Below the pieces are notes generated by a model. It saw only the letters and a list, made by a program, of their open reading frames with translations, was not told the DNA's origin and did no database searches. A DNA stretch of 64,000 nucleotides from Squalus acanthias (Eukaryota): contig JASTWF010000033.1 of the NCBI GenBank assembly GCA_030390025.1, positions 3,598,001-3,662,000 on the forward strand, given 5' to 3'. A program made the position numbers and the translations under genes. The first letter of the stretch is position 1. Every line of letters starts with the position of its first letter. Shown piece after piece: positions 1 through 52,749 of this stretch.

Positions 1-1707
1 AGAGTCTGTAAATGGAGCTTTCTGGGTCTGTAAATGGAGCTTTCTGGGTCTCTGAATGAGCTGTCTTTGACTGTTAATGGAGCTGTCTGGGTCTGTGAAT
101 GGAGCTGTCTGTGTCTGTGAATGGAGCTGTCTGGGTCTGTGAATGAGCTGTCTTGGTCTGTGACTGGAGCTGTCTGAGTCTGTGATTGGCTGTTTGGGTC
201 TGTGAATGGAGCTGTCTGGGTCTGTGAATGGAGCTGCCTGGGTCTGTGAATGGAGCTGTCTGAGTCTGTGAATGGAGTTGTCAGGGTCTGTGAATGGAGT
301 TGTCTGAGTCTTTAAATGGAGCTGTCTGGGTCTGTGAATGGAGCGGTCTGTGTCTGTGAATGCAGCTGTCTGGGTCTGTGAATGGAGCTGTTTGGGTCTG
401 TGAATGGAGCTGTCTGGGTTTGTAAATGGAGCTTTCTGGGTCTCTGAAAGAGCTGTCTTTGACTGTGAATGGAGCTGTCTGTGTCTGTGAATGGAGCTGT
501 CTGGGTCTTTGAATGGAGCTGTCTGTGTCTGTGAATTGAGCTGTCAGAGTTTGTAAATGGAACTTTCTGGGTCTCTGAATGAGCTGTCTTTGACTGTTAA
601 TGGAGCCTTCTGTGTCTGTGAATGGAGCTGTCTGGGTCTGTGAATGAGCTGTCTTGGTCTGTGACTGGAGCTGTCTGAGTCTGTGAATGGAGTTGTCTGG
701 GTCTGTGAATGTAGCTGTCTGTGTCTGTGAATGGAGCTGTTTGGGTCTGTGAATGGAGCTGTCTGGGTCTGTGAATGGAGCTGTCTGTGTCTGTGAAATG
801 AGCTGCCTGGTCGATGAAATGAGCTGTCTGTCTCTTTGAATGGAGCTGTCGGAGTCTGTAAATGGAGCTGTCTGGGTCTCTGAATGGAGCTGTCTGTGTC
901 TGTGAATTGAGCTGTCAGAGTCTGTAAATGGAGCAGTCTGGGTCTCTGAATGAGCTGTCTTTGACTGTGAATGGAGCTGACTGTGTCTGTGAAAGGAGCT
1001 GTCTGGGTCTGTGAATGAGCTGTCTTGGTCTGTGACTGGAGCTGTCTGAGTCTGTGAATGGTGCTGTCTGGGTCTGTGAATGAGCTGTCTTGGTCTGTGA
1101 ATGGAGCTGTCTGAGTCTGTGAATGGAGTTGTCTGAGTCTTTAAATGGAGCTGTCTGAGTCTTTAAATGGAGCTGTCTGGGTCTGTGAATGGAGCGGTCT
1201 GTGTCTGTGAATGGAGCTGTTTGGGTCTGTGTATGGAGCTGTTTGGGTCTGTGAATGGAGCTGTCTGGTTCTGTGAATGGAGCTGTCTGGTTCTGTGAAT
1301 GGAGCTGTCTGGATCTGTGAATGGAGCTGTCTGAGTCTGTGAATGGAGTTGTCTGGGTCTGTGAATGGAGCTGTCTGAGTCTTTAAATGGAGCTGTCTGT
1401 GTCTGTGAATGGAGCTGTCTGGGTCTGTGAATGGAGCTGTCTGGGTCTGTGAATGGAGCTGTCTGTTTCTGTGTCGGTGAATGAGCTGTCTGGTTCTGGG
1501 AATGGAGCTGTCTGGTTCTGTGAATGAAGTTGTCTGGATCTGTGAATGGAGCTGTCTGAGTCTGTGAATGGTGCTGTTTGGGTCTGTGAATGGAGCTATC
1601 TGTGTCTGTGTCGGTGAATGAGCTGTCTGGTTCTGGGAATGGAGCTGTCTGGATCTGTGAATGGATCTGTCTGGGTCTGTGAATGGAGCTGTCTGAATCT
1701 TTGAATG

Positions 1708-1804
1708 AATCTAACAACAGAAAACGCTGGAAAACTCTGCAGGCCAGGCACAATCCGTGGAGAGAGAAACAGAGTTAACGTTTCAGGTCGATGACCTATC
1801 GTCA
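1708..1804 (-). mobile_element. Penelope-like element terminal fragment (~97 bp) embedded in satellite, copy 1
   Basis: Non-satellite insert AATCTAACAACAGAAAACGCTGGAAAACTCTGCAGGCCAGGCACAATCCGTGGAGAGAGAAACAGAGTTAACGTTTCAGGTCGATGACCTATCGTCA; resembles the shark/fish Penelope-associated repeat as I recall it. Confidence 0.7.
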
Positions 1805-1805
1805 A
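1770..1805 (-). ncRNA. Degenerate minimal (Penelope-type, type I) hammerhead ribozyme core; representative of 12 amplified copies; probably inactive
   Basis: Minus strand reads UUGACGA-U-AGGUC-AUC-GACCU-GAAAC-GUU-AACUCUG. This is a (C>U)UGANGA box, 5-bp stem II, GAAA box and palindromic AACGUU in place of stem III. The 5' strand of stem I is replaced by satellite sequence. Confidence 0.6.
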
Positions 1806-3285
1806 TGGAGCTGTCTGGGTCTGTGAAATGAGCTGTCTTGGTCGATGAAATGAGCTGTCTGTCTCTTTAAATGGAGCTGTCGGAGTCTGTAAATAGAGCT
1901 GTCTGGTTCTCTGAATGGAGCAGTCTGTGTCTGTGAATTGAGCTGTCAGAGTCTGTAAATGGAGCTTTCTGGGTCTGTAAATGGAGCTTTCTGGGTCTCT
2001 GAATGAGCTGTCTTTGACTGTTAATGGAGCTGTCTGGGTCTGTGAATGGAGCTGTCTGTGTCTGTGAATGGAGCTGTCTGGGTCTGTGAATGAGCTGTCT
2101 TGGTCTGTGACTGGAGCTGTCTGAGTCTGTGAATGGAGTTGTCTGGGTCTGTGAATGGAGCTGTCTGAGTCTTTAAATAGAGCTGTCTGGGTCTGTGAAT
2201 GCAGCGGTCTGTGTCTGTGAATGGAGCTGTTTGGGTCTGTGAATGGAGCTGTCTGGGTCTGTGAATGGAGCTGCCTGGGTCTGTGAATGGAGCTGTCTGA
2301 GTCTGTGAATGGAGTTGTCAGGGTCTGTGAATGGAGTTGTCTGAGTCTTTAAATGGAGCTGTCTGGGTCTGTGAATGGAGCGGTCTGTGTCTGTGAATGC
2401 AGCTGTCTGGGTCTGTGAATGGAGCTGTTTGGGTCTGTGAATGGAGCTGTCTGGGTTTGTAAATGGAGCTTTCTGGGTCTCTGAAAGAGCTGTCTTTGAC
2501 TGTGAATGGAGCTGTCTGTGTCTGTGAATGGAGCTGTCTGGGTCTTTGAATGGAGCTGTCTGTGTCTGTGAATTGAGCTGTCAGAGTCTGTAAATGGAAC
2601 TTTCTGGGTCTCTGAATGAGCTGTCTTTGACTGTTAATGGAGCCTTCTGTGTCTGTGAATGGAGCTGTCTGGGTCTGTGAATGAGCTGTCTTGGTCTGTG
2701 ACTGGAGCTGTCTGAGTCTGTGAATGGAGTTGTCTGGGTCTGTGAATGTAGCTGTCTGTGTCTGTGAATGGAGCTGTTTGGGTCTGTGAATGGAGCTGTC
2801 AGGGTCTGTGAATGGAGCTGTCTGTGTCTGTGTCGGTGAATGAGCTGTCTGGTTCTGTGAATGGAGCTGTCTGGTTCTGTGAATGGAGCTGTCTGGATCT
2901 GTGAATGGAGCTGTCTGAGTCTGTGACTGGAGTTATCTGTGTCTGTGAATGGAGCTGTTTGGGTCTGTGAATGGAGCTGTCTGGGTCTGTGAATGGAGCT
3001 GTCTGTGTCTGTGTCGGTGAATGAGCTGTCTGGTTCTGTGAATGGAGCTGTCTGAGTCTGTGAATGGAGCTGTCTGGATCTGTGAATGGAGCTGTCTGGT
3101 TCTGTGAATGGAGCTGTCTGGATCTGTGAATGGAGCTGTCTGAGTCTGTGAATGGTGCTGTTTGGGTCTGTGAATGGAGCTATCTACTTCGGTGAATGAG
3201 CTGTCTGGGTCTGTGAATGGAGCTGTCTGGGTCTGTTAATGGAGCTGTCTGGGTCTGTGAATGGAGCTGTCTGAATCTGTGAATG

Positions 3286-3382
3286 AATCTAACAACAGAA
3301 AACGCTGGAAAACTCTGCAGGCCAGGCACAATCCGTGGAGAGAGAAACAGAGTTAACGTTTCAGGTCGAAGACCTATCGTCA
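3286..3382 (-). mobile_element. Penelope-like fragment, copy 2
   Basis: Same ~97-bp insert with the same junctions as 1708-1804. Confidence 0.7.
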
Positions 3383-3844
3383 ATGGAGCTGTCTGGGTCT
3401 GTGAAATGAGCTGTCTTAGTCGATGAAATGAGCTGTCTGTCTCTTTGAATGGAGCTGTCGGAGTCTGTAAATGGAGCTGTCTGGGTCTCTGAATGGAGCT
3501 GTCTGTGTCTGTGAATTGAGCTGTCAGAGTCTGTAAATGGAGCTTTCTGGGTCTGTAAATGGAGCTTTCTGGGTCTCTGAATGAGCTGTCTTTGACTGTG
3601 AATGGAGCTGTCTGTGTCTGTGAATGGAGCTGTCTGAGTCTGTGAATGGTGCTGTTTGGGTCTGTGAATGGAACTATCTGTGTCTGTGAATGAGCTGTCT
3701 GGATCTGTGAATGGAACTGTCTGAGTCTGAGAATGGTGCTGTTTGGGTCTGTGAATGGAGCTATCTGTGTCGGTGAATGAGCTGTCTGGGTCTGTGAATG
3801 GAGCTGTCTGGGTCTGTGAATGGAGCTGTCTGAATCTGTGAATG

Positions 3845-3941
3845 AATCTAACAACAGAAAACGCTGGAAAACTCTGCAGGTCAGGCACAATCCGTGGAGA
3901 GAGAAACAGAGTTAACGTTTCAGGTCGAAGACCTGTCGTCA
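3845..3941 (-). mobile_element. Penelope-like fragment, copy 3
   Basis: Same insert and junctions. Confidence 0.7.
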
Positions 3942-6900
3942 ATGGAGCTGTCTGGGTCTGTGAAATGAGCTGTCTTGATCGATGAAATGAGCTGTCTGTG
4001 TCTTTGAATGGAGCTGTCGGAGTCTGTAAATGGAGCTGTCTGGGTCTGTGAATGGAGCTGTCTGGGTCTGTGAATGGAGCTGTCTGGGTCTGTGAATGGA
4101 GCTGTCTGGGTCTGTGAATGGAGCTCTCTGAGTCTGTGAATGGTGCTGTTTGGGTCTGTGAATGGAGCTATCTGTGTCTGTGAATGAGCTGTCTGGATCT
4201 GTGAATGGAGCTGTCTGGGTCTGTGATTGGAGCTGTCTGGGTCTGTGAATGTAGCTGTCTGAGTCTGTAAATGGAGTTGTCTGGATCTGTGAATGGAACT
4301 GTCTTTGTCTGTGAATGAGCTGTCTGGGTCTGTGAAAAGTGCTGTTTTGGTCTGAAAATGTAGTTGTCTGGGTCTGTGAATAGAGCTGTCTAACGTTGTT
4401 CATGGAGCTGTCCTAGTCTGTGACCTGAGCTTTCAGAGTCTTTGAAGTCAGCCGTCTGGATCTTTGAATGGATCTGTCTGAGTGTCTGAAATGAGCTTTC
4501 TGAGTCTCTGAATGGAGATGTCTGGGTCTGTCAAATGAATTGTCTGAATCTGTTCGTGAAATGAGCTGTCTGTTTTTTTCAAATCAGATTTCCATATCTG
4601 TAAATGGAGCTGTCTGTTTTTTTGAATGGAGTTGTCTGGGTCTGTGAATGGAGCTGTCTGAGTCTGTGAATGTTGCTGTTTGGGTCTGTGAATGGAGCTA
4701 TCTCTGTCGGTGAATGAGCTGTCTGGGTCTGTGAATGGAGCTGTCTGGGTCTGTGAATGGAGCTGTCTGAGTCTGTGAATGGATCTGCCTGGGTCTGTGA
4801 ATGGATCTGTCTGGATCTGTGAAATGAACTTTCGGAGTCTGTGAATGGAGCTGTCTGGGTCTGTGAATGGAGCTGTCTGGGTCTGTGAATGGAGCTGTCT
4901 GGGTCTGTGAATGGAGCTGTCTGTGTCTGTGAATGGAGCTGTCTTAGACTGTGAATGGTGCTGTTTGGGTCTGTGAATGGAGCTATCTGTGTCTGTGAAT
5001 GAGCTGTCTGGATCTGTGAATGGAACTGTCTGTGTCTGTGAATGAGCTGTCTGGGTCTGAGAAATGTGCTGTCTGGGTCTGAAAATGGAGTTGTCTGGGT
5101 CTGTGAATAGAGCTGTCTGACGTTGTTATTGGAGCTGTCTGGGTCTGTGACCTGAGCTTTCAGAGTCTTTGATGTCAGCCGTCTGGATCTTTGAATGGAG
5201 CTATCTGAGTGTCTGAAATGAGCTTTCTGAGTCTCTCAATGGAGATGTCTGGGTCTGTCAAATGAATTGTCTGAATCTGTTCGTGAAATGAGCTGTCTGT
5301 TTTTTTCAAATCAGCTTTCCATGTCTGTAAATGGAGCTGTCTGTGTTTTTGAATGGAGTTGTCTGGGTCTGTGAATGGAACTGTCTGAGTCTGTGAATGG
5401 TGCTGTTTGGGTCTGTGAATGGAGCTATCTGTGTCTGTGAATGAGCTGTCTGGATCTGTGAATGGAGCTGTCTGGGTCTGTGATTGGAGCTGTCTGGGTC
5501 TGTGAATGTAGCTGTCTGAGTCTGTAAATGGAGTTGTCTGGATCTGTGAATGGAACTGTCTTTGTCTGTGAATGAGCTGTCTGGGTCTGTGAAAAGTGCT
5601 GTTTTGGTCTGAAAATGTAGTTGTCTGGGTCTGTGAATAGAGCTGTCTAACGTTGTTCATGGAGCTGTCCTAGTCTGTGACCTGAGCTTTCAGAGTCTTT
5701 GAAGTCAGCCGTCTGGATCTTTGAATGGATCTGTCTGAGTGTCTGAAATGAGCTTTCTGAGTCTCTGAATGGAGATGTCTGGGTCTGTCAAATGAATTGT
5801 CTGAATCTGTTCGTGAAATGAGCTGTCTGTTTTTTTCAAATCAGATTTCCATATCTGTAAATGGAGCTGTCTGTGTTTTTGAATGGAGTTGTCTGGGTCT
5901 GTGAATGGAGCTGTCTGAGTCTGTGAATGTTGCTGTTTGGGTCTGTGAATGGAGCTATCTCTGTCGGTGAATGAGCTGTCTGGGTCTGTGAATGGAGCTG
6001 TCTGGGTCTGTGAATGGAGCTGTCTGAGTCTGTGAATGGATCTGCCTGGGTCTGTGAATGGATCTGTCTGGATCTGTGAAATGAACTTTCGGAGTCTGTG
6101 AATGGAGCTGTCTGGGTCTGCGAATGGAGCTGTCTGGGTCTGTGAATGGAGCTGTCTGGGTCTGTGAATGGAGCTGTCTGTGTCTGTGAATGGAGCTGTC
6201 TTAGTCTGTGAATGGTGCTGTTTGGGTCTGTGAATGGAGCTATCTGTGTCTGTGAATGAGCTGTCTGGATCTGTGAATGGAACTGTCTGTGTCTGTGAAT
6301 GAGCTGTCTGGGTCTGAGAAATGTGCTGTCTGGGTCTGAAAATGGAGTTGTCTGGGTCTGTGAATAGAGCTGTCTGACGTTGTTAATGGAGCTGTCTGGG
6401 TCTGTGACCTGAGCTTTCAGAGTCTTTGATGTCAGCCGTCTGGATCTTTGAATGGAGCTATCTGAGTGTCTGAAATGAGCTTTCTGAGTCTCTCAATGGA
6501 GATGTCTGGGTCTGTCAAATGAATTGTCTGAATCTGTTCGTGAAATGAGCTGTCTGTTTTTTTCAAATCAGCTTTCCATGTCTGTAAATGAAGCTGTCTG
6601 TGTTTTTGAATGGAGTTGTCTGGGTCTGTGAATGGAACTGTCTGAGTCTGTGAATGGTGCTGTTTGGGTCTGTGAATAGAGCTATCTGTGTCGGTGAATG
6701 AGCTGTCTGGGTCTGTGAATGGAGCTGTCTGAGTCTGTAAATGGATCTGTCTGGATCTGTGAATGGAACTGTCTGTGTCTGTGAATGAGCTGTCTGGCTC
6801 TGAGAAATGTGCTGTCTGGGTCTGAAAATGGAGTTGTCTGCGTCAGTGAATAGAGCTGTATGACGTTGTTATGGAGCTGTCTGGGTCTGTGACCTGAGCT

Positions 6901-7207
6901 TTCAGAGTCTTTGAAGTCAGCCGTCTGGATCTTTGAATGGAGCTGTCTGAGTGTCTGAAATGAGCTTTCTGAGTCTCTGAATGGAGATGTCTGAGTCTCT
7001 CAAATGAATTGTCTGAATCTGTTCGTGAAATGAGCTCTCTGTTTTTTTCAAATCAGCTTTCCATGTCTGTAAATGGAGCTGTCTGGGGTTGTGAATGGAG
7101 CTGTCTGAGTCTGTGAATGGATCTGTCTGGGTCTGTGAATGGAGCTCTCTGGATCTGTGAAATGAACTTTCGGAATCTGTGAATGGAGCTGTCTGAATCT
7201 GTGAATG

Positions 7208-7302
7208 AATCTAACAACAGAAAACGCTGGAAAATTCTGCAGGCCAGGCACAATCCGTGGAGAGAGAAACAGTTAACGTTTCAGGTCGAAGACCTGTCGT
7301 CA
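7208..7302 (-). mobile_element. Penelope-like fragment, copy 4 (2-bp AG deletion)
   Basis: Same insert and junctions. Confidence 0.7.
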
Positions 7303-7966
7303 ATGGAGTTGTCTGGGTCTGTGAAATGAGCTGCCTTGGTCGATGAAATGAGCTGTCTGTCTCTTTGAATGGAGCTGTCGGAGTCTGTAAATGGAGCTGT
7401 CTGGGTCTCTGAATGGAGCTGTCTGTGTCTGTGAATTGAGCAGTCAGATTCTGTAAATGGAGCTTTCTGGGTCTGTAAATGGAGCTTTCTGGGTCTCACA
7501 TTGAGCTGTCTTTGACTGTGAATGGAGCTGTCTGTGTCTGTGAATGGAGCTGTCTGGATCTTGAATGAGCAGTCTTGGTCTGTGACTGGAGCTGTCTGAA
7601 TCTGTGAATGGAGTTGTCTGGGTCTGTGAATGGAGCTGTCTGAGACTTTAAATGGAGCTGCCTGGGTCTGTGAATGGAGCGGTCTGTGTCTGTGAATGGA
7701 GCTGTTTGGGTCTGTGAATGGAGCTGTCTGGGTCTGTGAATGGAGCTGTCTGTGTCTGTGTCGGTGAATGAGCTGTCTGGTTCCGTGAATGGAGCTGTCT
7801 GAGTCTGTGAATGGTACTGTTTGGGTCTGTGAATGGAGCTATCTGTGTCTGTGAATGAGCTGTCAGGGTCTGTGAATGGAGCTGTCTGGGTCTGTGAATG
7901 GAGCTGCCTGGGTCTGTGAATGGAGCTGTCTGGGACTGTGAATGGAGCTGTCTGAATATGTGAATG

Positions 7967-8063
7967 AATCTAACAACAAAAAACGCTGGAAAACTCTGCA
8001 GGCTAGGTACAATCCGTGGAGAGAGAAACAGAGTTAACGTTTCAGGTCGAAGACCTGTCGTCA
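7967..8063 (-). mobile_element. Penelope-like fragment, copy 5
   Basis: Same insert and junctions. Confidence 0.7.
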
Positions 8064-9392
8064 ATGGAGCTGTCTGGGTCTGTGAAATGAGCTGTCTTGG
8101 TCGATGAAATGAGCTGTCTGTCTCTTTGAATGGAGCTGTCGGAGTCTGTAAATGGAGCTGTCTGGGTCTCTGAATGGAGCTGTCTGTGTCTGTGAATTGA
8201 GCTGTCAGAGTCTGTAAATGGAGCATTCTGGGTCTGTAAATGTAACTTTCTGGGTCTCTGAATGAGCTGTCTTTGACTGTGAATGGAGCTGTCTGTGTCT
8301 GTGAATGGAGCTGTCTGTGTCTGTGAATGAGCTGTTTTGGTCTGTGACTGGAGCTGTCTGAGTCTGTGAATGGCGTTGTCTGGGTCTGTGAATGGAGCTG
8401 TCTGAGTCTTTAAATGGAGCTGTCTGGGTCTGTGAATGGAGCGGTCTGTGTCTGTGAATGGAGGTGTTTGGGTCTGTGAATGGAGCTGTCTGGGTCTGTG
8501 AATGGAGCTGTCTGTGTCTGTGTCGGTGAGTGAGCTGTCTGGTTCTGTGAATGGAGCTGTCTGGTTCTTTGAATGGAGCTGTCTGGATCTGTGAATGGAG
8601 CTGTCTGGTTCTGTGAATGGAGCTATCTGTGTCGGTGAATGAGCTGTCTGGGTCTGTGAATGGAGCTGTCTGACGTTGTTAATGGAGCTGTCTGGGGCTC
8701 TGACTTGAGCTATCGGAGTCTTTGAAGTCAGCCGTCTGGATCTTTGAATGGAGCTGTCTGAGTGTCTGGAATGAGCTTTCTGAGTCTCCGAATGGAGATG
8801 TCTGGGTCTTTCAAATGAATTGTCTGAATCTGTTCTTGACATGAGCTGTCTGATTTTTTTAAAATCAGCTTTCCATGTCTGTAAATGGAGCTGTCTGGGT
8901 TTTTGAATGGAGTTGTCTGGGTCTGTGAATGGAGCTGTCTGAGTCTGTGAATGGTGCTGTTTGGGTCTGTGAATGGAGCTATCTGTGTCTGTTAATGAGC
9001 TGTCTGGATCTGTGAATGAGCTGTCTGAGTCTGTGAATGAGCTGTCTGGGTCTGTGAAATGTGCTGTCTGGGTCTGAAAATTGAGTTGTCTGGGTCTGTG
9101 AATGGAGCTGTCTGGGTCTGTAAATGGAGCTGTCTGAGTCTGTGAATGGTGCTGTTTGGGTCTGTGAATGGAGCTATCTGTGTCTGTGAAGGAGCTGTCT
9201 GGATCTGTGAATGGAGCTGTCTGAGTCGGTGAATGAGCTGTCTGGGTCTGTGAATGGAGCTGTCTGGGTCTGTGATTGGAGCTGTCTGAGTCTGTGAATG
9301 GCGCTATCTGTGTCTGTGAATGAGCTGTCTGGGTCTGTGAAAAGTGCTGTCTGGGTCTGAAAATGGAGTTGTCTGGGTCTGTGAATAGAGCT

Positions 9393-9522
9393 ACGACGAT
9401 AGCAAAATACTGCGGATGCTGGAAATCTGAAATAACAACAGAAAACGCTGGAAAAACTCTGCAGGCCAGGCAGCATCCGTGGAGAGAGAAAGAGAGTTAA
9501 CGTTTCGGGTCGATGACCTTTC
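9393..9522 (-). mobile_element. Independent, longer Penelope-like fragment with 12-bp target-site duplication
   Basis: AGCAAAATACTGCGGATGCTGGAAATCTGAAATAACAACAG...GTTAACGTTTCGGGTCGATGACCTTTC flanked by GTGAATAGAGCT at 9381-9392 and 9523-9534. Confidence 0.8.
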
Positions 9523-10067
9523 GTGAATAGAGCTGTCTGATGTTGTTAATGGTGCTGTCTGGGTCTGAAAATGGAGTTGTCTGGGTCTGTGAATAGAGCT
9601 GTCTGACGTTGTTAATGGAGCTGTCTGGGTCTGTGACCTGAGCTTTCAGAGTCTTTGAAGTCAGCCTTCTGGATCTTTGAATGGATCTGTCTGAGTGTCT
9701 CAAATGAGCTTTCTGAGTCTCTGAATGGAGATGTCTGGGTCTGGGTCTGTCACATGAATTGTCTGAATCTGTTCGTGAAATGAGCTGTCTGTTTTTTTCA
9801 AATCAGCTTTCCATGTCTGTCAATGGAGCTGTCTGGGTTTGTGAATGGAATTGTCTGGGTCTGTGAATGGAGCTGTCTGAGTCTGTGAATGGATCTGTCT
9901 GGGTCTGTGAATGGAGCTGTCTGGATCTGTGAAATGAACTTTCGGAGTCTGTGAATGGAGCTGTCTGGGTCTCTGAATGGAACTGTCTGTGTCTGTGAAT
10001 GGTTTTATCTAGGTCTTTGAAATGAACTCTCTGAGTCTGTGAATGGAGCTGTCTGAATCTTTGAATG

Positions 10068-10164
10068 AATCTAACAACAGAAAACGCTGGAAAACTCTGC
10101 AGGCCAGGCACAATCCGTGGAGAGAGAAACAGAGTTAACGTTTCAGGTCGAAGACCTGTCGTCA
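10068..10164 (-). mobile_element. Penelope-like fragment, copy 6
   Basis: Same insert and junctions as 1708-1804. Confidence 0.7.
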
Positions 10165-10829
10165 ATGGAGCTGTCTGAGTCTGTGAAATGAGCTGTCTTG
10201 GTCGATGAAATGAGCTGTCTGTCTCTTTGACTGGAGCTGTCGGAGTCTGTAAATGGAGCTGTCTGGGTCTCTGAATGGAGCTGTCTGTGTCTATGAATTG
10301 AGCTGTCAGAGTCTGTAAATGGAGCTTTCTTGGTCTGTAAAAGGAGCTTTCTGGGTCTCTGAATGAGCTGTCTTTGACTGTTAATGGAGCTCTCTGTGTC
10401 TGTGAATGGAGCTGTCTGGGTCTGTGAATGAGCTGTCTTGGTCTGTGACTGCAGCTGTCTGAGTCTGTGAATGGAGTTGTCTGGGTCTGTGAATGGAGCT
10501 GTCTGAGTCTTTAAATGGAGCTGTCTGGCTCTGTGAATGGAGCGGTCTGTGTCTGTGAATGGAGCTGTTTGGGTCTGTGAATGGAGCTGTCTGGGTCTGT
10601 GAATGGAGCTGTCTGTGTCTGTGTCGGTGAATGAGATGTCTGGTTCCGTGAATGGAGCCGTCTGGTTCTGTGAATGGAGCTGTCTGGATCTGTGAATGGA
10701 GCTGTCTGAGTCTGTGAATGGTGCTGTTTGGGTCTGTGAATGGAGCTATCTGTGTCGGTGAATGAGCTCTCTGGGTTTGTGAATGGAGCTGTCTGGGTCT
10801 GTGAATGGAGCTGTCTGAATCTGTGAATG

Positions 10830-10926
10830 AATCTAACAACAGAAAACGCTGGAAAACTCTGCAGGCCAGGCACAATCCGTGGAGAGAGAAACAGAGTTAA
10901 CGTTTCAGGTCGAAGACCTATCGTCA
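10830..10926 (-). mobile_element. Penelope-like fragment, copy 7
   Basis: Same insert and junctions. Confidence 0.7.
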
Positions 10927-11237
10927 ATGGAGCTGTCTGAGTCTGTGAAATGAGCTGTCTTGGTCGATGAATTGAGCTGTCTGTCTCTTTGAATGGAGCT
11001 GTCTTGATCTGTGAATGGATCTGTCTGGGTCTGTGAATGGAGCTGCCTGAGTCTGTGAATGGATCTGTCTGGGTCTGTGAATGGAGCTGTCTGGATCTGT
11101 GAAATGAACTTTCGGAGTCTCTGAATGGAGCTGTCTGGGTCTCTGAATGGAACTGTCTGTGTCTGTGAATGGTTTTATCTAGCTCTTTGAAATGAACTCT
11201 CTGAGTCTGTGAATGGAGCTGTCTGAATCTTTGAATG

Positions 11238-11334
11238 AATCTAAAAACAGAAAACGCTGGAAAACTCTGCAGGCCAGGCACAATCCGTGGAGAGAGAAAC
11301 AGAGTTAACGTTTCAGGTCGAAGACCTATCGTCA
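11238..11334 (-). mobile_element. Penelope-like fragment, copy 8
   Basis: Same insert; 408 bp from copy 7. Confidence 0.7.
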
Positions 11335-11645
11335 ATGGAGCTGTCTGAGTCTGTGAAATGAGCTGTCTTGGTCGATGAATTGAGCTGTCTGTCTCTTTGA
11401 ATGGAGCTGTCTTGATCTGTGAATGGATCTGTCTGGGTCTGTGAATGGAGCTGCCTGAGTCTGTGAATGGATCTGTCTGGGTCTGTGAATGGAGCTGTCT
11501 GGATCTGTGAAATGAACTTTCGGAGTCTCTGAATGGAGCTGTCTGGGTCTCTGAATGGAACTGTCTGTGTCTGTGAATGGTTTTATCTAGGTCTTTGAAA
11601 TGAACTCTCTGAGTCTGTGAATGGAGCTGTCTGAATCTTTGAATG

Positions 11646-11742
11646 AATCTAAAAACAGAAAACGCTGGAAAATTCTGCAGGCCAGGCACAATCCGTGGAG
11701 AGAGAAACAGAGTTAACGTTTCAGTTCGAAGACCTGTCGTCA
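11646..11742 (-). mobile_element. Penelope-like fragment, copy 9
   Basis: Same insert; 408 bp from copy 8. Confidence 0.7.
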
Positions 11743-12407
11743 ATGGAGCTGTCTGGGTCTGTGAAATGAGCTGTCTTGGTCGATGAAATGAGCTGTCTGT
11801 GTCTTTGAATGGAGCTGTCGGAGTCTGTACATGGAGCTGTATTGGTCTCTGAATGGAGCTGTCTGTGTCTGTGAATTTAGCTGTCAGAGTCTGTAAATGG
11901 AGCTTTCTGGGTCTGTAAATGGAGCTTTCTGGGTCTCTGAATGAGCTGTCTTTGACTGTGAATGGAGCTGTCTGTGTCTGTGAATGTAGCTGTCTGGGTC
12001 TGTGAATGAGCTGTCTTGGTCTGTGACTGGAGCTGTCTGAGTCTGTGAATGGAGTTGTCTGGGTCTGTGAATGGAGCTGTCTGAGTCTTTAAATGGAGCT
12101 GTCTGGGTCTGTGAATGGAGCGGTCTGTGTCTGTGAATGGAGCTGTTTGGGTCTGTGAATGGAGCTGTCTGGGTCTGTGAATGGAGCTGTCTGTGTCTGT
12201 GTCGGTGAATGAGCTACCTGGTTCTGTGAATGGAGCTGTCTGTTTCTGTGAATGGAGCTGTCTGGATCTGTGAATGGAGCTGTCTGAGTCTGTGAATGGT
12301 GCTGTTTGGGTCTGTGAATGGAGCTATCTGTTTCGGTGAATGAGCTGTCTGGGTCTGTGAATGGAGCTGTCTGGATCTGTGAATGGAGCTGTCTGAATCT
12401 GTGAGTG

Positions 12408-12504
12408 AATCTAACAACAGAAAACGCTGGAAAACTCTGCAGGCCAGGCACAATCCGTGGAGAGAGAAACAGAGTTAACGTTACAGGTCGAAGACCTATC
12501 GTCA
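12408..12504 (-). mobile_element. Penelope-like fragment, copy 10
   Basis: Same insert and junctions. Confidence 0.7.
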
Positions 12505-13898
12505 ATGGAACTGTCTGGGTCTGTGAAATGAGCTGCCTTGTTCGATGAAATGAGCTGTCTGTCTCTTTGAATGGAGCTGTCGGAGACTGTAAATAGAGCT
12601 GTCTGGGTCTCTTAATGGAGCTGTCTGTGTCTGTGAATTGAGCAGTCGGAGTCTGTAAATGGAGCTTTCTGGGTCTGTAAATGGAGCTTTCTGGGTCTCT
12701 GAATGAGCTGTCTTTGACTGTGAATGGAGCTGTCTGTGTCTGTGAATGGAGCTGTCTGGATCTGTGAATGGAGCTGTCTGAGTCTGTGAATGGTGCTGTT
12801 TGGGTCTGTGAATGGAGCTATCTGTGTCGGTGAATGAGCTGTCTGGGTCTGTGAATGGAGCTGTCTGACGTTGTTAATGGAGCTGTCTGGGTCTGTGACT
12901 TGAGCTTTCCGAGTCTTATGAAGTCAGCCGTCTGGATCTTTGAATGGAGCTGTCTGAGTGTCTGAAATGAGCTTTCTGAGTCTCTGAATGGAGATGTCTG
13001 GGTCTGTCAAATGAATTGTCTGAATCTGTTCGTGAAATGAACTGTCTGTTTTTTTCAAATCAGCTTTCCATGTCTGTAAATGGAGCTTTCTTGGTTTTTG
13101 AATGGAGTTGTCTGGGTCTGTGAATGAAGCTGTCTGAGTCTGTGAATGGTGCTGTTTGGGTCTGTGAATGGAGCTATCTGTGTCTGTTAATGAGCTGTCT
13201 GGATCTGTGAATGGAGCTTTCTGAGTCTGAGAATGATGCTGTTTGAGTCTGTGAATGGAGCTATCTGTGTCGGTGAATGGAGCTGTCTGGGTCTGTGAAT
13301 GGAGCTGTCTGTGTCTGTGAATGGAGCTGTCTGAGTCTGTAAATGGAGCTGTCTGGATCTGCGAATGGAACTGTCTGTGTCTGTGAATGAGCTGTCTGGG
13401 TCTGTGAAATGTGCTGTCTGGGTCTGAAAATGGAGTTGCTGGGTCTGTGAATAGAGCTGTCTGACTTTGTTAATGGAGCTGTCTGGGTCTGTGACCTGAG
13501 CTTTCAGAGTCTTTGAAGTCAGCCGTCTGGATCTTTGAATGGAGCTGTGTGAGTGTCTGAAATGAACTTTCTGTGTCTCTGAATGGAGATGTCTGGGTCT
13601 ATCAAATGAATTGTCTGAATCTGTCCGTGAAATGAGCTGTCTGTTTTTTTTCAAATCAGCTTTCCATGTCTGTAACTGGAGCTATCTGGGTTTGTGAATG
13701 GAGTTGTCTGGGTCTGTGAATGGAGCTGTCTGAGTCTGTGAATGGATCTGTCTGGGTCTGTGAATGGAGCTGTCTGGATCTGTGAAATGAACTTTCGGAG
13801 TCTGTGAATGGAGCTGTCTGGGTCTGTGAATGGAACTGTCTGTGCCTGTGAATGGTTACATCTAGGTCTCTGAAATGATCTTTCTGAGTCTGTGAATG

Positions 13899-13995
13899 AA
13901 TCTAACAACAGAAAACGCTGGAAAACTCTGCAGGCCAGGCACAATCCGTGAAGAGAGAAACAGAGTTAACGTTTCAGGTCGATGACCTATCGTCA
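13899..13995 (-). mobile_element. Penelope-like fragment, copy 11
   Basis: Same insert and junctions. Confidence 0.7.
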
Positions 13996-15629
13996 ATGGA
14001 GCTCTCTGGGTCTGTGAAATGAGCTGTCTTGGTCGAAGAAATGAGCTGTCTGTCTCTTTGAATGGAGCAGTCTGTGTCTGTGAATTGAGCTGTCTGGGTC
14101 TGTGAATGAGCTGTCTTTGACTGTGAATGGAGCTGTCCGAGTCTTTAAATGGAGCTGTCTGGGTCTGTGAATGGAGCGGTCTGTGTCTGTGAATGGAGCT
14201 GTTTGGGTCTGTGAATGGAGCTGTCTGAGTCTGAGAATGGTGCTGTTCGGGTCTGTGAATGGAGTTATCTGTGTCGGTGAATGGAGCTGTCTGGGTCTGT
14301 GAATGGAGCTGCCTGGGTCTGTGAATGGAGCTGTCTTAGTCTGTAAATGGAGCTGTCTGGATCTGTGAATGGAACTGCCTGTGTCTGTGAATGAGCTGTC
14401 TGGGTCTGTGAAATGTGGTGTCTGTGTCTGAAAATGGAGTTGTCTGGGTCTGTGAATGAGCTGTCTTGGTCTGTGACTGGAGCTGTCTGAGTCTGTGAAT
14501 GGAGTTGTCTGGGTCTGTGAATGGAGCTGTCCGAGTCTTTAAATGGAGCTGTCTGGGTCTGTGAATGGAGCGGTCTGTGTCTGTGAATGGAGCTGTTTGG
14601 TTCTGTGAGTGGAGCTGTCTGGTTCTGTGAATGTAGCTGTCTGGATCTGTGAATGAAGCTGTCTGAGCCTGTGAATGGAGCTGTCTGACGTTGTTCATGG
14701 AGCTGTCTGGGTCTGTGACTTGAGCTTTCAGTGTCTTTGAAGTCAGCCGTCTGGATCTTTGAATGGAGCTGTCTGAGTGTCTGAAATGAGTTTTCTGAGT
14801 CTCTGAATGGAGATGTCTGGGTCTGTCAAATGAATTGTCTGAATCTGTTCGTGAAATGAGCTGTCTGTATTTTTCAAATCAGCTTTCCATGTCTGTAAAT
14901 GGAGCTGTCTGGGTTTTAGAAAGGAGTTGTCTGGGTCTGTGAATGGAGCTGTCTGAGTCTGTGAATGGTGCTGTTTGGGTCTGTGAATGGAGCTATCTGT
15001 GTCTGTGAATGAGCTGTCTCACTCTGTGAATGGAGCTGTCTGAGTCTGAGAATGGTGCTGTTTGGGTCTGTGAATGGAACTGCCTGTGCCTGTGAATGAG
15101 CTGTCTGGGTCTGTGAAATGTGGTGTCTGTGTCTGAAAATGGAGTTGTCTGGGTCTGTGAATAGAGCTGTCTGACGTTGTTAATGGAGCTGTCTGGGTCT
15201 GTGACCTGAGCTTTCAGAGTCTTTGAAGTCAGCCGTCTGGATCTTTGAATGGAGCTGTCTGAGTGTCTGAAATGAGCTTTCTGTGTCTCTGAATGGAGAT
15301 GTCTGGGTCTATCAAATGAATTGTCTGAATCTGTCCGTGAAATGAGCTGACTGTTTTTTTCAAATCAGCTTTCCATGTCTGTAACTGGAGCTGTCTGGGT
15401 TTGTGAATGGAGTTGTCTGGGTCTGTGAATGGAGCTGTCTGAGTCTGTGAATGGATCTGTCTGGGTCTGTGAATGGAGCTGTCTGGATCTGTGAAATGAA
15501 CTTTCGGAGTCTGTGAATGGAGCTGTCTGGGTCTGTGAATGGAACTGTCTGTGCCTGTGAATGGTTTTATCTAGGTGTCTGAAATGAACTTTCTGAGTCT
15601 GTGAATGGAGCTGTCTGAATCTGTGAATG

Positions 15630-15726
15630 AATCTAACAACAGAAAACGCTGGAAAACTCTGCAGGCCAGGCACAATCCGTGGACAGAGAAACAGAGTTAA
15701 CGTTTCAGGTCGAAGACCTATCGTCA
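15630..15726 (-). mobile_element. Penelope-like fragment, copy 12
   Basis: Same insert and junctions. Confidence 0.7.
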
Positions 15727-17899
15727 ATTGAGCTGTCTGGGTCTGTGAAATGAGCTGTCTTGGTCGATGAAATGAGCTGTCTGTCTCTTTGAATGGAGCT
15801 GTCGGAATCTGTAAATGGAGCTGTCTGGGTCTCTTAATGATGCTGTCTGTGTCTGTGAATTGAGCTGTCAGAGTCTGTAAATGGAGCTGTCTGGGTCTTT
15901 AAATGGAGCTGTCTGGGTCTCTGAATGAGCTGTCTTTGTCTGTGAATGGGGCTGTCTGTGTCTGTGAATGCAGCTGTCTGGGTCTGTGAATGAGCTGTCT
16001 TGGTCTGTGAATGGAGCTGTCTGAGTCCGTGAATGGAGTTGTCTGGGTCTGTGAATGGAGCTGTCTGGATCTGAGAAATAAACTTTCGGAGTCTGTGAAT
16101 GGAGCTGTCTGAGTCTCTGAATGGAACTGTCTGTGTTTGTGAATGGAGCTGTCTGGATCTGTGAATGGAGCTGTCTGGGTCTGTGAATGGAGCTGTCTGG
16201 ATCTGTGAAATAAACTTTCGGAGTCTGTGAATGGAGCTGTCTGAGTCTCTGAATGGAGCTGTCTGGGTCTGTGAATGGAACTGTCTGGGTCTCTGAATGT
16301 AACGGTCTGTGTCTGTGAATGGTGATGTCTGGGTCTGTGAATGGAACTGTCTGAGTCTGTGAATGGAGCTCTCTGGGTCAGTGAAATATGCTTTCTGCGT
16401 CTGTGAATGAGCTGTCTGGGTCTGTGAATAGAGCTGTCAGAGTCTGTGAATGGTGCTGTCTGAGTCTGTTACTGGAGCTGTCTTGGTCGATGAAATGAGC
16501 TGTCTGTGTCCTTGAATGGAGCTGTCTGGATCTGTGGAATTTGCTGTCTGGGTCTGCGAAATCAGCTGTCTGGTCTGTGAAGAAAGCTGTCTGAGTCTGT
16601 GAATGGAGCTGTCTGTGTCTGTGAATTGAGCTGCCAGAGTCTGTAAATGGAGCTGTCTGGGTCTGTGAATGGAGCTGTCTGTTTCTGTGAATGGAGCTGA
16701 ATATGTCTGTGAATTGAGCTGTCAGAGTCTGTAAATGGAGCTGTCTGGGTCTGTAAATGGAGCTGTCTCGGTCTGTAAATGGAGCTGTCTGGGTCTGTAA
16801 ATGGAACTGTTTGGGTCTGGGAATGGAGCTGTTTGGGTCTGTAAATGGAGCTGTCTGGGTCTGTAAATGGAGCTGTCTGGGTCTGTGAATGGAGCTGTCT
16901 GTGTCTGTGAATGGAGCAATCTGAGTCTGTGAATGGAGCTGTTTGGGTCTGTGAATGTAGCTATCTGTGTCTGTGAATGGGCTGTCTGGGTCTTTGAATG
17001 GAGCTGTCTGGGTCAGTGAATGGAGCTGTCTGGGTCTGTGAATGGAGCTTTCTGGGTCTGTGAATGGAGCTGTCTGGGTCTGTGAATGGAGCTGTTTGGG
17101 TCTGTAAATGGAGCTGTCTGGGTCTGTAAATGGAGCTGTCTGGGTCTGTGAATGGAGCTGTCTGTGTCTGTGAATGGAGCAATCTGAGTCTGTGAATGGA
17201 GCTGTTTGGGTCTGTGAATGGAGCTATCTGTGTCTGTGAATGGGCTGTCTGGGTCTGTGAATGGAGCTGTCTGGGTCAGTGAATGGAGCTGTCTGGGTCT
17301 GTGAATGGAGCTTTCTGGGTCTGTGAATGGAGCTGTCTGGGTCTGTGAATGGAGCTGAATATGTCTGTGAATTGAGCTGTCAGAGTCTGTAAATGGAGCT
17401 GTCTGGGTCTGTAAATGGAGCTGTCTCGGTCTGTAAATGGAGCTGTCTGGGTCTGTAAATGGAACTGTTTGGGTCTGGGAATGGAGCTGTTTGGGTCTGT
17501 AAATGGAGCTGTGTGTGTCTGTAAATGGAGCTGTCTGGGTCTGTGAATGGAGCTGTCTGTGTCTGTGAATGGAGCTTTGGGAGTCTGGTAAATGCGTTGT
17601 CTAGGTCTGTGAATGGAGATGTCTGGGTCTGTGCATTGAGCTGTCTGAGTCTGTGAATGGAGCTGTCTCGGTCTGTGAATGGAGATGTCTGTCTCTGTGA
17701 ATTGAGCTGTCTGAATCTGTGAAATGCGTTGTCTGGGTCTGTCAATGGAGCTGTCTTGGTCTGTGAAATGAGTGGTCTGGGTCTGTGAAGGGAAATGTCT
17801 GGGTATGTGAAATGAACTTCCTGTGTTTGTGAAATGAGCTGTCTTGGTTTTTGAAATCAGCTTTCCATGTCTGTGAATGGAGCTGTTTGGGTCTGTGAA

Positions 17900-18064
17900 A
17901 TCACATAATCACAGAACCCCCTAATGCAGATAGAGGCCATTTCGGCCCATCGAGCCTGCACATACACATATCCCACCCTATCCCCGTAACCACAATATTT
18001 AATCCCCCAAACACTAAGGGTCAATTTATCATAGCCAAATCAACCTAACCCGCACATCTTTGGA
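17900..18064 (-). mobile_element. 5'-truncated HE1/V-SINE-like SINE with CR1-type 3' tail
   Basis: Minus strand has the V-domain-like GTCCAAAGATGTGCGGGTTAGGTTGATTTGGCTATGATAAATTGACCCTTAGTGT and a CR1-like tail GCAGGCTCGATGGGCCGAAATGGCCTC...TTCTGTGATTATGTGA. Flanked by the 17-bp direct repeat CTGTTTGGGTCTGTGAA (17883-17899, 18065-18081). Confidence 0.8.
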
Positions 18065-19053
18065 CTGTTTGGGTCTGTGAATGGAGCTGTCTGGATCTGT
18101 GAATGGAGCTGTCTAGCTCTGTGAAGTGAGCTGTCTGGGTCTGTGAATGGAGCTGTCTGGGACAGTCAAATGAGCTTTCTGAGTCTGTGAAACTATCTGT
18201 CTTGGTCTGTGAATGGTGATGTCTGGGTCTGTGAAATGATCTCTCTGGGTCTGTGAATAGAACTGCCTGGGTCTTTCAATGGAGCTGTCTGGGTCTGTGA
18301 ATGGAACTGTCTGGGTCTGTGAATGGAGCTGTCTGTGTCTGTGAAATGAGCTGTCTGGGACTGTGAATGGATCTCTCTGGGTCTGTGAATGGAGCTGTTT
18401 GAGTCTGTGAATGGAGCTGCCTGGATCTGTGAATGGCGCTGCCTGTGTCTGTGAATGAAGCTCTCTGGGACTGTGAATGGAGCTCTCTGGGTCTGTGAAA
18501 GGAGCTGTCTGAGTCTGTGAATGGAGATGTCTGAGTCGGTAATTGAAGCTGCCTGGGTCTGTGAATGGAGCTATCTGTGTCTGTGAATGGAGATGTCTGA
18601 GTCTGTGAATGGAGCTGTCTGGGTCTGTGAATGGAGCTGTCTGTGTCTGTGAATGGAGCAGTCTGGGTCTGTGAATGGAACTGTTTGTGTCTGTGAATGG
18701 AGCTAGCTGGGCCTGTGAATGTCGCTGTCTGTGTCTGTGAATGGAGCTTTCTGAGTCTGTGAAATGAATTATCTGGGTCTGTGAATGGATCTGTCTGGGT
18801 CTGTGAATGGAGCTGTCGGAATATCTGGAATGAGTTGTCTTTCTCTGTGAATGGAGATGTCTAGGTCTGTGAAATGAACTCTCTGGGTTTGTGAAATGAG
18901 CTTTCTGAGTCTGTGAATGGAGCTGTCTGAGTCTGTGAATGCAGCTGTCTGGATCTGTGAATGGAGATGTCAGGGTCTGTGAATGGAGCTGTCTATGTCT
19001 CTGAAATGAACTTTCTGAGTTTGTGAAATGAGTTGTCTGTGTTTTTGAAATGA

Positions 19054-19851
19054 GCATTTTGGGAAGATTAACATGGGAAGGGAATACACAATGAATGGTA
19101 GGACCCTAGGAAGGAGGGAGGTTCAGAGGGACCTTGGTGTGCATGTACACAGATCCCTGAAGGCAGCAGGAGAGGTAGATAAGGTGGTTAAAAAGGCATA
19201 TGGGATACTTGCCTTCATTCGCCGAGGCATAGACTTTAAGTGCAGGGTGTTTACGACGAAGCTGTACAAAATGCTAGTTAGGCCACAGCTGGAATACTGT
19301 GTGCAGTTCTGGTCGCCACACTATAGGAAGGATGTGATTGCATTTGAAAGGGTGCAGAGGAGATTCACCAGGATGTTACCTGGGCTGGAGCGCTTCAGCT
19401 ATGAAGCGAATCTGGACAGGCTGGGGTTGTTTTCCTTAGAGCAGAGAAGGCTGAGGGGGGAACCTGATTGAGGTGTACAAAATTATGAGGGACATTGATA
19501 CGGTAGATAGAAAATAACTTTTCCCCTTAGTAGAGGGGTCAATAACCAGGGGGCATAGTTTCAAGGTAAGGGGCAGGAGGTTCAGAGGGGATTTGAGGAA
19601 AAACTTTTTCACCCAGAGGGTGGTTGGAATCTGGAACTCACTGCATGAAAGGGAGGTAGAGGCAGGAACCCTCACAACATTCAAGAAGCATTTAGATGAG
19701 CACTTGAAATGCCATAGCATACAAGGCTACGGACCAAGTGCTGGAAAATGGGATTATAATAGATGGAGCTTCATGGCCAGCGCGGACACGATGGGCCAAA
19801 GGGCCTCTTTCTGTGCTGTATAAATCTATGACTCTGTGACTATGACTATGA
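19054..19851 (+). mobile_element. 5'-truncated CR1 LINE, 3' end of ORF2 plus 3' UTR; disabled
   Basis: Translation RDLGVHVH...LVRPQLEYCVQFWSPHYRKD...NFFTQRVVGIWNSL is typical of the CR1 ORF2 C-terminus. Frameshift near 19460 and stop near 19516. Tail of (CTATGA)-type repeats. Confidence 0.93.
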
Positions 19852-21190
19852 CCTTCTCCCCAGGAATATTTGGTACCCAATCCTTTCCTTTTTTGAGCAT
19901 GTCTCCATTATCATCATGACAACATATTGCCATGTGGCCTGCAGCTCACCAACCTTATTAACCACACTTCATGCATTTACCCACATGCACTATAAACCTG
20001 TCTTGTATTCTCTTAGTCTGACCCCACATAGGACCTTATTATTTCTTACTCTTGTTCTATCCGTCTCTGCCAATCCTTTGTGCACCTTGATTCTCCTTTC
20101 TAATGCTACAGTCTGGAGCCCACCCACTGCCAAATTAGTTTAAAACCTCCCCAACACTACGAGCATCCCACCCCCCTCCCCGTCGAGGCCATTGGTTTCG
20201 GCCCTGTTGAGGTGCAAACTTACCGACCTGTACAGGCCCCACCTCCCCGAGAACCGGTCCCAATGTCCCAGGAATCTAAAGCACTCCCTAATGCACCATC
20301 TCTCCAGCCTCTCATTCATCTGCTCTATCCTCCTATTTCTATACTCACCAGCACAGGCACCGGGAGTAATCCGAACATAACTACCTTTGAGGTCCTGATT
20401 TTAATCTCTTTCCCAGCTCCCTAAAATCTGCCTGCAGGTCGTCATCCCTCTTTATACATATGTCATTGGTACCGATATGGACCACGACCTCTGGCTGTTC
20501 AACCACCCCCCTCAGAATGTTCTTCAGTCCTTGACCCTGGCACCAGGGAGGAAACATACCATCCTGGAGTCACGTCTGCGGCCGCAGAAACGATTGTCTA
20601 TTCCCCTAACTATTGAATCCTCGAACACTATTGCTTTCCTGATTTTTCTCCTACCACCCCCACCCCCCACTGTAGAGCTGATCCACCCGTGGTGCTCTGG
20701 ACTTGGCTCTGGAAATACTCGCCAGAGGAACCAACTCACTCTCCAGTATGTACCACTGAATACCGGTTAGAGAGTGAGATGCACTCAGGAGACTCCTGCA
20801 CTACCTGCCTGGTCCACCTTGTCTGTCTGGCGGTCACCCATTCCCTCTCTGCCTGCACACTCTTAGGTTGCGGGGTGACCATCTCCTGAAACGTGCTATC
20901 CAAGTAGCTCTCAGCCTCACGGATGCACCGCAGTGACGCCAGTTGCTGCTCAAGCTCCTAAACCCGGAGTTCGAGCTCCTCCAGCTGACGACACTTCCTG
21001 CATATGTGGTTGTCCAGGACACGGGAAGTGTACTGGAGTTCCCACATGGCACAAGATGTGTATTAAACGGGAATGAGGTGCCCTGCCATGCCTTTATTGA
21101 ATAGACCAATACTAACTTAAAAGAAATAAACACAAGACTTTTAAATGTAAATTTAAAATTTGCATTGTTAAACTGTTCAAATAATGTGTA
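19852..21190 (-). mobile_element. CR1 LINE 5' portion: 5' UTR, decayed ORF1 and start of ORF2 endonuclease
   Basis: ORF1 remnants at 20135-21089; below ~19995 a decayed APE N-terminus (VNA.SVVNKVGELQA...MET...DWV.NIPG). The 5' boundary is approximate. Confidence 0.88.
20135..21089 (-). pseudogene. CR1 ORF1 pseudogene (zinc-finger/leucine-zipper N-terminus plus SGNH esterase domain)
   Basis: ATG at 21089: MAGHLIPV*YTSCAMWE...NHICRKCRQLEELELRV*ELEQQLASLRCIREAESYLD; later AIVFEDSIVRGIDNRFCGRRRDSRMVCFLPGARVKD (degenerate GDS motif); ends LN* at 20135. In-frame stops are present. Confidence 0.88.
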
Positions 21191-34516: not shown

Positions 34517-34630
34517 CATAGAAACATAGAAACTAGGAGCAGGAGTAGGCCATTCGTCCCTTCGAGCCTGCTCCACCATTCGCTACGATCATGGCTGATC
34601 ATCCAAATCCAGTACCCTGTCCCTGCTTTC
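34517..34630 (-). mobile_element. CR1 3'-terminal fragment
   Basis: Reverse complement encodes KAGTGY, followed by GGATGATCAGCCATGATC...CCTACTCCTGCTCCTAG and a (TTTCTATG)n tail. Confidence 0.9.
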
Positions 34631-34817
34631 CAACACAGAATCCCCATCGAGCCTGCACCGACACATATCCAAACCTATCCCCGTAACCCCACGTATTTAA
34701 TTCCCCCTAACATATCCCATCCAATCCTATCCCCGTAACCCCACTTATTTAATCCCCCCCTAACACTAATGTTCAATTTATCATTGCCAAATCAACCTAA
34801 CCCGCACATTTTTGGAC
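34631..34817 (-). mobile_element. Truncated HE1/V-SINE-like fragment with an internal tandem duplication (~52-bp period)
   Basis: Homologous to 17900-18064; CCTATCCCCGTAACCCCAC.TATTTAAT.CCCCCTAACA occurs twice. Confidence 0.8.
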
Positions 34818-52448: not shown

Positions 52449-52749
52449 CATAGAAACATAGAAACTAGGAGCAGGAGTAGGCCATTCGTCCCTTCGAGCC
52501 TGCTCCACCATTCGCTACGATCATGGCTGATCATCCAAATCCAGTACCCTGTCCCTGCTTTCCAACACAGAATCCCCATCGAGCCTGCACCGACACATAT
52601 CCAAACCTATCCCCGTAACCCCACGTATTTAATTCCCCCTAACATATCCCATCCTATCCTATCCCCGTAACCCCACTTATTTAATCCCCCCCTAACACTA
52701 ATGTTCAATTTATCATTGCCAAATCAACCTAACCCGCACATTTTTGGAC
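52449..52749 (-). mobile_element. Composite CR1 3' end plus V-SINE fragment, duplicate of 34517-34817
   Basis: Near-identical sequence and junctions at offset 17932. Confidence 0.9.

Follow-up and report, generated by a model that had tools for sequence, protein, structure and literature searches.

Does a satellite array that carries many copies of a hammerhead-like fragment make a ribozyme satellite, or does the satellite simply carry the fragment along? This question is raised by a stretch of 64,000 nucleotides from Squalus acanthias (hereafter the window; GenBank assembly GCA_030390025.1, contig JASTWF010000033.1, positions 3,598,001 to 3,662,000 of the forward strand), in which a 22-bp satellite array (4..19039, no strand assigned, about 864 units, 72% matches) is interrupted repeatedly by a short insert. 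The original prediction read the insert as part of a Penelope-like element with a hammerhead core that had inserted once, had been amplified as part of a higher-order repeat and could be an intermediate toward ribozyme satellites. Our analysis leads to a more modest explanation. The insert is very probably the 3' end of a Penelope element cut at core position C3, which likely entered the satellite in a single insertion, likely persists as a neutral passenger at hundreds of sites, and is predicted to have lost catalysis. Loci and contigs are numbered with the prefixes L and C.

The amplified insert and its Penelope-like parent

When the window was searched with the minus-strand motif, allowing up to 3 mismatches, 12 matches were obtained between 1770 and 15727, all on the minus strand, and 0 in 100 shuffles. 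The surrounding inserts (96-98 bp) have identical junctions in 12/12 cases, in agreement with the same-orientation copies originally described. Copy 1, a stump of the Penelope 3' end, lies at 1708..1805 and contains the broken hammerhead at 1772-1805, with the equivalent of the cleavage site between 1777 and 1776. Copies 2 and 3 (3286..3383 and 3845..3942) are followed by copy 4 (7208..7303), which has a 2-nt deletion just 3' of the motif, and by copies 5 (7967..8064) and 6 (10068..10165). Copy 7 (10830..10927) is the first of three at 408-bp steps, together with copy 8 (11238..11335) and copy 9 (11646..11743), the last with a stem II mismatch. Copy 10 (12408..12505) has its GAAA altered at A13, and copies 11 (13899..13996) and 12 (15630..15727) complete the set, all on the minus strand. 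The predicted non-satellite insert of about 97 bp is thus real, but only about 93 nt of it derive from the element (1712-1804 in copy 1), and the remaining letters of the 97-98 bp are target or filler. The search with hammerhead models that had been suggested for this locus, an Rfam scan of positions 1-20000 at E<=10, returned five chance hits and no hammerhead model, and is uninformative for minimal motifs; we base the hammerhead call on a descriptor scan and on intact relatives, with no curated model.

These relatives were collected from the same genome with a 13th, independent copy of the family as query (described below), which gave 41 matches from the best 40 of 1859 candidates; 30 loci were fetched. 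In the longer dispersed copies among them the same stem II has CAGTT-CTGA(C/T)GA upstream of it, and therefore stem I and C3 belong to the family. A descriptor scan of 99 dispersed loci found 91 distinct motif matches, 84 of which have C3 and a stem I of at least 3 pairs, so that the dispersed parent family contains the complete core, stem I and stem II of a minimal type I hammerhead. The upstream stem I strand and CUGANGA expected of full-length relatives are therefore present. The parent resembles the minimal hammerheads that Penelope-like elements of metazoans carry in their terminal repeats (Cervera and De la Pena 2014, PMC4209133) in its short stem I, CUGANGA, bulged base before stem II, GAAA, palindromic 15.2-16.2 and NUH, and in occurring genome-wide mostly as solo truncated copies. 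The satellite stump is unlike them in having neither C3 nor the 5' strand of stem I, and in its multiplication by satellite turnover instead of retrotransposition.

Upstream of the motif, open frames of about 400 residues in L006, L015, L020, L021 and L025 contain YIDD, a C-x4-C-x2-C linker and a GIY-YIG motif (LYIGET). Copies of the family may carry a tail or lack it, most of their target duplications measure 11-15 bp, and inverted arms occur that stop 35-44 nt short of the tail's end. In L132, a partial tandem, two hammerheads are separated by 3189 bp, and the frame reads through the upstream one. A frame of reverse transcriptase (RT) and C-terminal GIY-YIG endonuclease, the linker, partial tandems, inverted arms, the tail and target duplications are thus all found in the parent, as expected of the Neptune type. 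They recall the Neptune elements (Craig et al. 2021, PMC8557442) and Poseidon PAc (Frangieh et al. 2024, PMC11167929), which share the RT with C-terminal GIY-YIG, a CX2-5CxxC linker, partial tandems, inverted 5' arms, a tail of 30-40 nt that may be absent, two 3' end points and a frame starting at the hammerhead. A CX2-5CxxC linker between RT and endonuclease defines the Neptune type (PMC8557442), and the architecture of endonuclease-bearing Penelope-like elements is also described in PMC3846280. Judged by its predicted protein the parent is an endonuclease-bearing Penelope-like element, in line with the Penelope origin first proposed, and the linker motif, on which the clade assignment is based, points to the Neptune type.

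Three further observations concern the family at large. L056, L060, L062, L077 and L089 belong to a subfamily with C at core position 4 (CCGACGA), whose stem I is intact and whose loop II measures 2 nt; the descriptor scan has 7 matches of this type. Short fold-back insertions whose arms meet inside the hammerhead or at its edge occur at L002, L047, L055, L077, L081 and L098. One Penelope insertion is present with the same 3' flank on six unplaced contigs (L006, L007, L008, L026, L027 and L029); whole insertions have therefore also been multiplied by segmental duplication.

A stump cut at the edge of the ribozyme

For the amplified insert we compared 102 full copies, taken from 20 stretches besides the window and representing 62 haplotypes; of 104 BLAST matches, the 13th copy and one cut by a region end were dropped. 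The sampled stretches were chosen with a pattern covering the 5' half of the motif, which biases them toward apparent conservation. The amplified part of the element extends from U4 to the site at which the inverted arms also stop, 35-44 nt short of the tail end, and the nearest dispersed copies are 94.7% identical over the insert. Position 3 is T, with satellite upstream, in 102/102 full copies, and the apparent C3U mutation is therefore the junction itself, i.e., the last base of the satellite. The U first reported at this position is thus correct as a letter, but it is not a mutation. C3 and stem I are each found in 0/102. Stem II, GAAA, the palindromic 15.2-16.2 and NUH are retained in the amplified insert. 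G8 is present in 102/102 copies, and the insert has neither a C3 core nor the combination of U3 with A8. In PMC4209133, U3 matched by A8 is the only natural variant of position 3 named. Mutants of C3 and G8 (C3G, not C3U) abolish cleavage of the lizard Penelope hammerhead (PMC11167929), and a literature search for activity data on C3U found nothing.

Across 27 array stretches there were 69 motif matches, 68 with U3 and no stem I pair; the 69th belongs to another family. With 0 stem I base pairs in 68/68 array matches of the insert, the replacement of the stem I 5' strand by satellite is confirmed. The expected loss of cis-cleavage also fits the 102 copies, and the amplified stump is predicted to be unable to cut RNA. 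The proposed tandem array of ribozyme cores is another matter, since a complete core or a stem I occurs in 0/102 copies. One stretch holding the same satellite, L129 (contig C3552:109001-119000), contains one complete minimal hammerhead of a different family, with another stem I and stem II.

It is also of interest where other copies of the family end. The 5' ends of 70 of the 107 exact tail matches (L041-L110, contigs C1-C29) were mapped against 17 long natural copies; nine further tail matches on large contigs, five of which looked truncated at the hot spot on inspection, are not in this set, nor are the matches on C30 or the small contigs. A truncation map against one reference copy was rejected, as subfamily differences upstream of the motif mimic truncation, and the map was redone all-against-all. 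Among the 55 copies that reach the 5' part of the ribozyme, 15 end 125-142 nt from the tail end (C3 is at 134), which is 7.9x background (P=2e-8); the second-best 18-nt window holds 6 ends. Seven of the 15 hot-spot ends adjoin a target duplication. None of 59 copies (0/59) begins at the cleavage site, which agrees with uncleaved RNA as the template (PMC11167929); in the Neptune elements and PAc, too, self-cleaved RNA as template is unsupported in the parts compared. As far as PMC8557442 and PMC11167929 were compared, a pile-up of 5' ends at the ribozyme edge is undescribed in them. Just upstream of the hot spot is a pyrimidine tract ending in CAG, and these letters could act as a splice acceptor or, going by the initiator consensus, as an initiator. 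In Drosophila virilis Penelope an intron ends at helix I (PMC4209133), and start sites lie in the Penelope terminal repeat (PMC6765202). In four copies a G precedes AGTT, for which cap copying or target homology is possible.

The 13th insertion, of the same family and a younger subfamily, lies at 9393..9522 on the minus strand. It has a 35-40 nt tail, is cut at N7/G8 of the core, is unamplified and stands between the two copies of a 12-bp target-site duplication (left, 9381..9392; right, 9523..9534; both on the plus strand). Its junctions differ from those of the 12 amplified copies, and it is a separate insertion event. It has the same strand and a similar satellite phase as the amplified insert and is broken in the same core, and both insertions in the 22-bp satellite end within the hot-spot zone.

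Probable spread with the satellite

The copy-to-copy spacings in the window are 1578, 559, 3363, 759, 2101, 762, 408, 408, 762, 1491 and 1731 bp, and the flanks that remain co-linear between pairs of insert copies range from 6 to about 1000 bp (maximum 1008). The array is a patchwork of duplicated blocks with only local, short-lived periods. Because spacing is irregular and the co-linear flanks are variable, there is no fixed-period higher-order repeat, i.e., no multi-monomer period repeated in tandem, and this part of the original prediction had to be given up. Three additional insert copies are found just left of the window (locus L111).

Other sequences have been captured here as well. In the adjoining 18-bp satellite, a 1319-bp 3' piece of a CR1-type long interspersed nuclear element (LINE) occurs twice (28338-29656 and 42421-43739) with 99.4% identity and identical junctions, and a 296-bp composite repeat fragment also occurs twice (34520-34816 and 52452-52747; 99.7% identity). 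Capture and duplication are therefore general in these arrays. A relative of the 296-bp fragment is present as a single copy in the 22-bp satellite (17900-18070). The two satellites are separated by a CR1-type LINE 3' end (19060-19830) and then by another repeat (19830-21310).

The exact 5' junction has 86 matches in the genome, on 25 contigs and none among C1-C28, and the exact 3' junction has 243 matches, of which the 100 listed begin at C29; reversed controls gave 0 in both cases. The original count of 12 is correct for the window, but it missed the 13th copy and understated the scale, which amounts to hundreds of copies on many contigs and in several organisms. The same two junctions recur in 102/102 full copies and on many contigs, which argues for one old insertion that spread with the satellite, much as had been proposed. 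Contigs that bridge a junction with at least 31 letters on each side were found in four sequencing runs whose organism codes are B, C, F and E (X8 record 24, X9 record 25, X12 record 1 and X15 record 9), two of them with 0-1 differences; the organism labels may be wrong, and any code may be the source species. Taken at face value, these contigs would make the insertion older than the split of several related species. A satellite 36-mer has 1853 exact matches, and the 100 listed are all on C29; one sampled C29 array (L137) is without the insert. The 22-bp satellite and the insert seem confined to the smallest chromosome-scale contigs (C29 and C31) and unplaced scaffolds, with none on C1-C28 among the matches listed.

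We then asked whether the 102 copies show signs of function. Parsimony events number 10 on 10 sites in the core, 14 on 10 sites in stem II, 75 on 61 sites in the rest of the insert and 94 on 60 sites in the flanks. One stem II G is changed to T in 21 copies without compensation, and neither conservation nor compensated stem changes were found in the amplified insert, at low power. Six ordinary variants of the satellite occur 8-14 times each in this array, and the insert occurs 12 times. On these grounds (a core not conserved above background, uncompensated stem II changes and amplification no greater than that of neutral variants) the idea of an intermediate toward ribozyme satellites is not upheld. 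Folding predicts a hairpin in which the core is paired to the strand of the cleavage site for 79/102 stumps with their native junction versus 26/46 intact dispersed copies (single-fold z=-1.5); misfolding was rejected as evidence because it poorly separates stumps from intact copies.

Alternative readings and known systems

The preferred explanation, a truncated 3' end carried passively by the satellite, can be put as a series of steps. The element's endonuclease would have nicked the satellite, and by analogy with PAc, reverse transcription may have begun at the tail-less site where the family's inverted arms also end; in this lizard element, two 3' end points correspond to two reverse-transcription start sites (PMC11167929). 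Copying would then have stopped at the 5' edge of the ribozyme, where the family's 5' ends pile up. Joining to the target through one shared T would have replaced C3 by a satellite T, and the 5' strand of stem I would never have been copied. Unequal exchange, conversion and block duplication probably carried the marked segment to new places in its own array and to other arrays, earlier than the split of several related species, as the identical junctions suggest, and the copies appear to decay regardless of the ribozyme core.

Several points weigh against this explanation. Position 3 aside, the core is intact in 89/102 copies and stem II is paired in 64; the intact remainder of the core would be compatible with low divergence, and also with weak constraint. 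The comparison of the core with the rest of the insert (1.0 versus 1.23 events per site, P=0.64) includes only 10 core sites and has little power. Whether the amplified insert has a target duplication is doubtful, with 7/9 letters in a self-similar satellite. The hot-spot window was picked post hoc, and its 15 ends include three inversion junctions and one possible internal deletion. As for the parent, the Pfam GIY-YIG match has an E value of 2e-4 but a score of 21.9 bits, below the cut-off of 22.6; a Pfam search of the parent frame gave no RT family match, so that the RT is a matter of motifs read by eye, and a PDB sequence search with this frame gave no match. Finally, of the 36 ends without a tail at dispersed loci, 28 are accompanied by a tailed copy on the opposite strand, and the stump could be a remnant of an inverted arm.

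This last point leads to the most serious competitor, which keeps the same passenger history and makes the stump the surviving tail-less arm of a fold-back insertion, the tailed arm having been deleted between satellite units. We regard it as possible, at clearly lower probability than a direct truncated insertion. The 3' end of the stump does coincide with the spot, 35-44 nt short of the tail end, at which inverted arms stop, hammerhead-centred fold-backs exist, and the amplified stump has no clean target duplication. The loci were selected for tailed copies, however, which inflates the number of partnered cases; deletion of an arm would need to break off precisely where 5' ends of the family usually lie; and an AG follows the stump's 3' junction, in a satellite phase that the tailed 13th insertion shares. 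A co-opted array, in which satellite transcripts serve as a source of small RNAs against Penelope or as a trans substrate of intact hammerheads and so maintain the fragment, is improbable. It could draw on the hundreds of copies held in several coded organisms and on the substrate side (palindromic CG, GUU and AACU), which is whole in most copies, and one contig, from a run that is presumed to contain RNA, spans the left junction, which is no proof of transcription. Yet the copy number equals that of neutral variants with no excess conservation, trans pairing would amount to only about 4 + 4 base pairs, and other fragments are duplicated in neighbouring satellites too. The stronger claim that the terminal fragment has been domesticated by the satellite across species, its transcripts giving half of a trans-cut substrate or silencing small RNAs, seems to us a shade less probable again.

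An active or nascent ribozyme satellite, i.e., a non-LTR retrozyme (LTR, long terminal repeat) whose adjacent copies cut as dimers, is very unlikely. Dimer cleavage of hammerheads is on record (Lunse et al., as cited in PMC6765202), and Penelope terminal repeats are a source of retrozymes (bioRxiv 10.64898/2026.07.22.740005). Same-strand tandem copies exist, three at 408 bp and others 320-342 bp apart (L112, L130), and these distances fall inside the 150-450 bp given for published monomers (PMC7229834). A dimer too, however, needs both C3 and stem I's 5' strand, and as every copy is without them, it cannot supply them; U3 is unmatched by A8, spacing is irregular and stem II decays without compensation. 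Retrozymes grow by local tandem amplification and are recognized by at least 2 consecutive units with a complete hammerhead (bioRxiv 10.64898/2026.07.22.740005). The 27 array stretches hold 0 complete family motifs, and in place of a regular monomer of about 150-450 bp the window has spacings of 408-3363 bp, only two of them equal to 408. Equally hard to credit is the fragment as a handle by which a Penelope enzyme retrotransposes satellite RNA to new sites. The end of the fragment coincides with a probable start site of reverse transcription, and other sequence can be mobilised in trans by terminal repeats (PMC3846280), but retro-copies should end at the 3' end of the insert against new flanks, and 102/102 copies run on into the same 3' satellite flank, which argues against retro-copying from the insert end. 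An assembly artefact that duplicated one insertion has a negligible chance of being the answer: satellite arrays on unplaced contigs are error-prone and some copies are identical, but there are 62 insert haplotypes, at least 25 contigs and junctions in independent runs.

Among known systems, the closest in appearance are the non-LTR retrozymes of newts, axolotl, coral, mussel and Xenopus (PMC7229834; Li, Clavereau and Pollet 2026), which likewise consist of one-strand tandem Penelope-derived hammerhead sequence, expand by unequal crossover and cluster in few regions (PMC7229834; bioRxiv 10.64898/2026.07.22.740005). The unit of a retrozyme is a terminal repeat with a complete ribozyme that gives monomeric and circular RNA, whereas here an unrelated 22-bp satellite carries an incomplete ribozyme at irregular spacing. 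Passive multiplication together with the satellite neighbourhood recalls the transposon fragments co-amplified with tandem repeats in rye subtelomeric heterochromatin (PMC4857426); unlike the rye case, the array in the window is a vertebrate minisatellite with a ribozyme-bearing stump traceable to one insertion. A search of titles and abstracts, which did not extend to supplements or subscription journals, found no precedent for a Penelope hammerhead fragment in an unrelated satellite; supplements of the cited papers may list this family or arrays of a similar kind. We concluded that the kind of event, a satellite-carried transposon fragment, is already known, and that a ribozyme satellite is an unlikely reading of this locus.

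The array can serve as a negative control for retrozyme searches, as tandem look-alikes of Penelope hammerheads need not be ribozyme satellites. As a passenger, the insert is also a clean lineage marker: it labels one subfamily of the satellite on at least 25 contigs and in several organisms, so that the spread of blocks between arrays and species becomes measurable. Domestication, if true, would link satellite RNA processing to retroelement activity. For the Penelope family itself, a pile-up of 5' ends at the ribozyme edge would explain the loss of the ribozyme in most stumps. If the ends really pile up there and never at the cleavage site, they would show either the start of the template RNA or the place at which copying halts, a question about Penelope transposition that may matter more to specialists.

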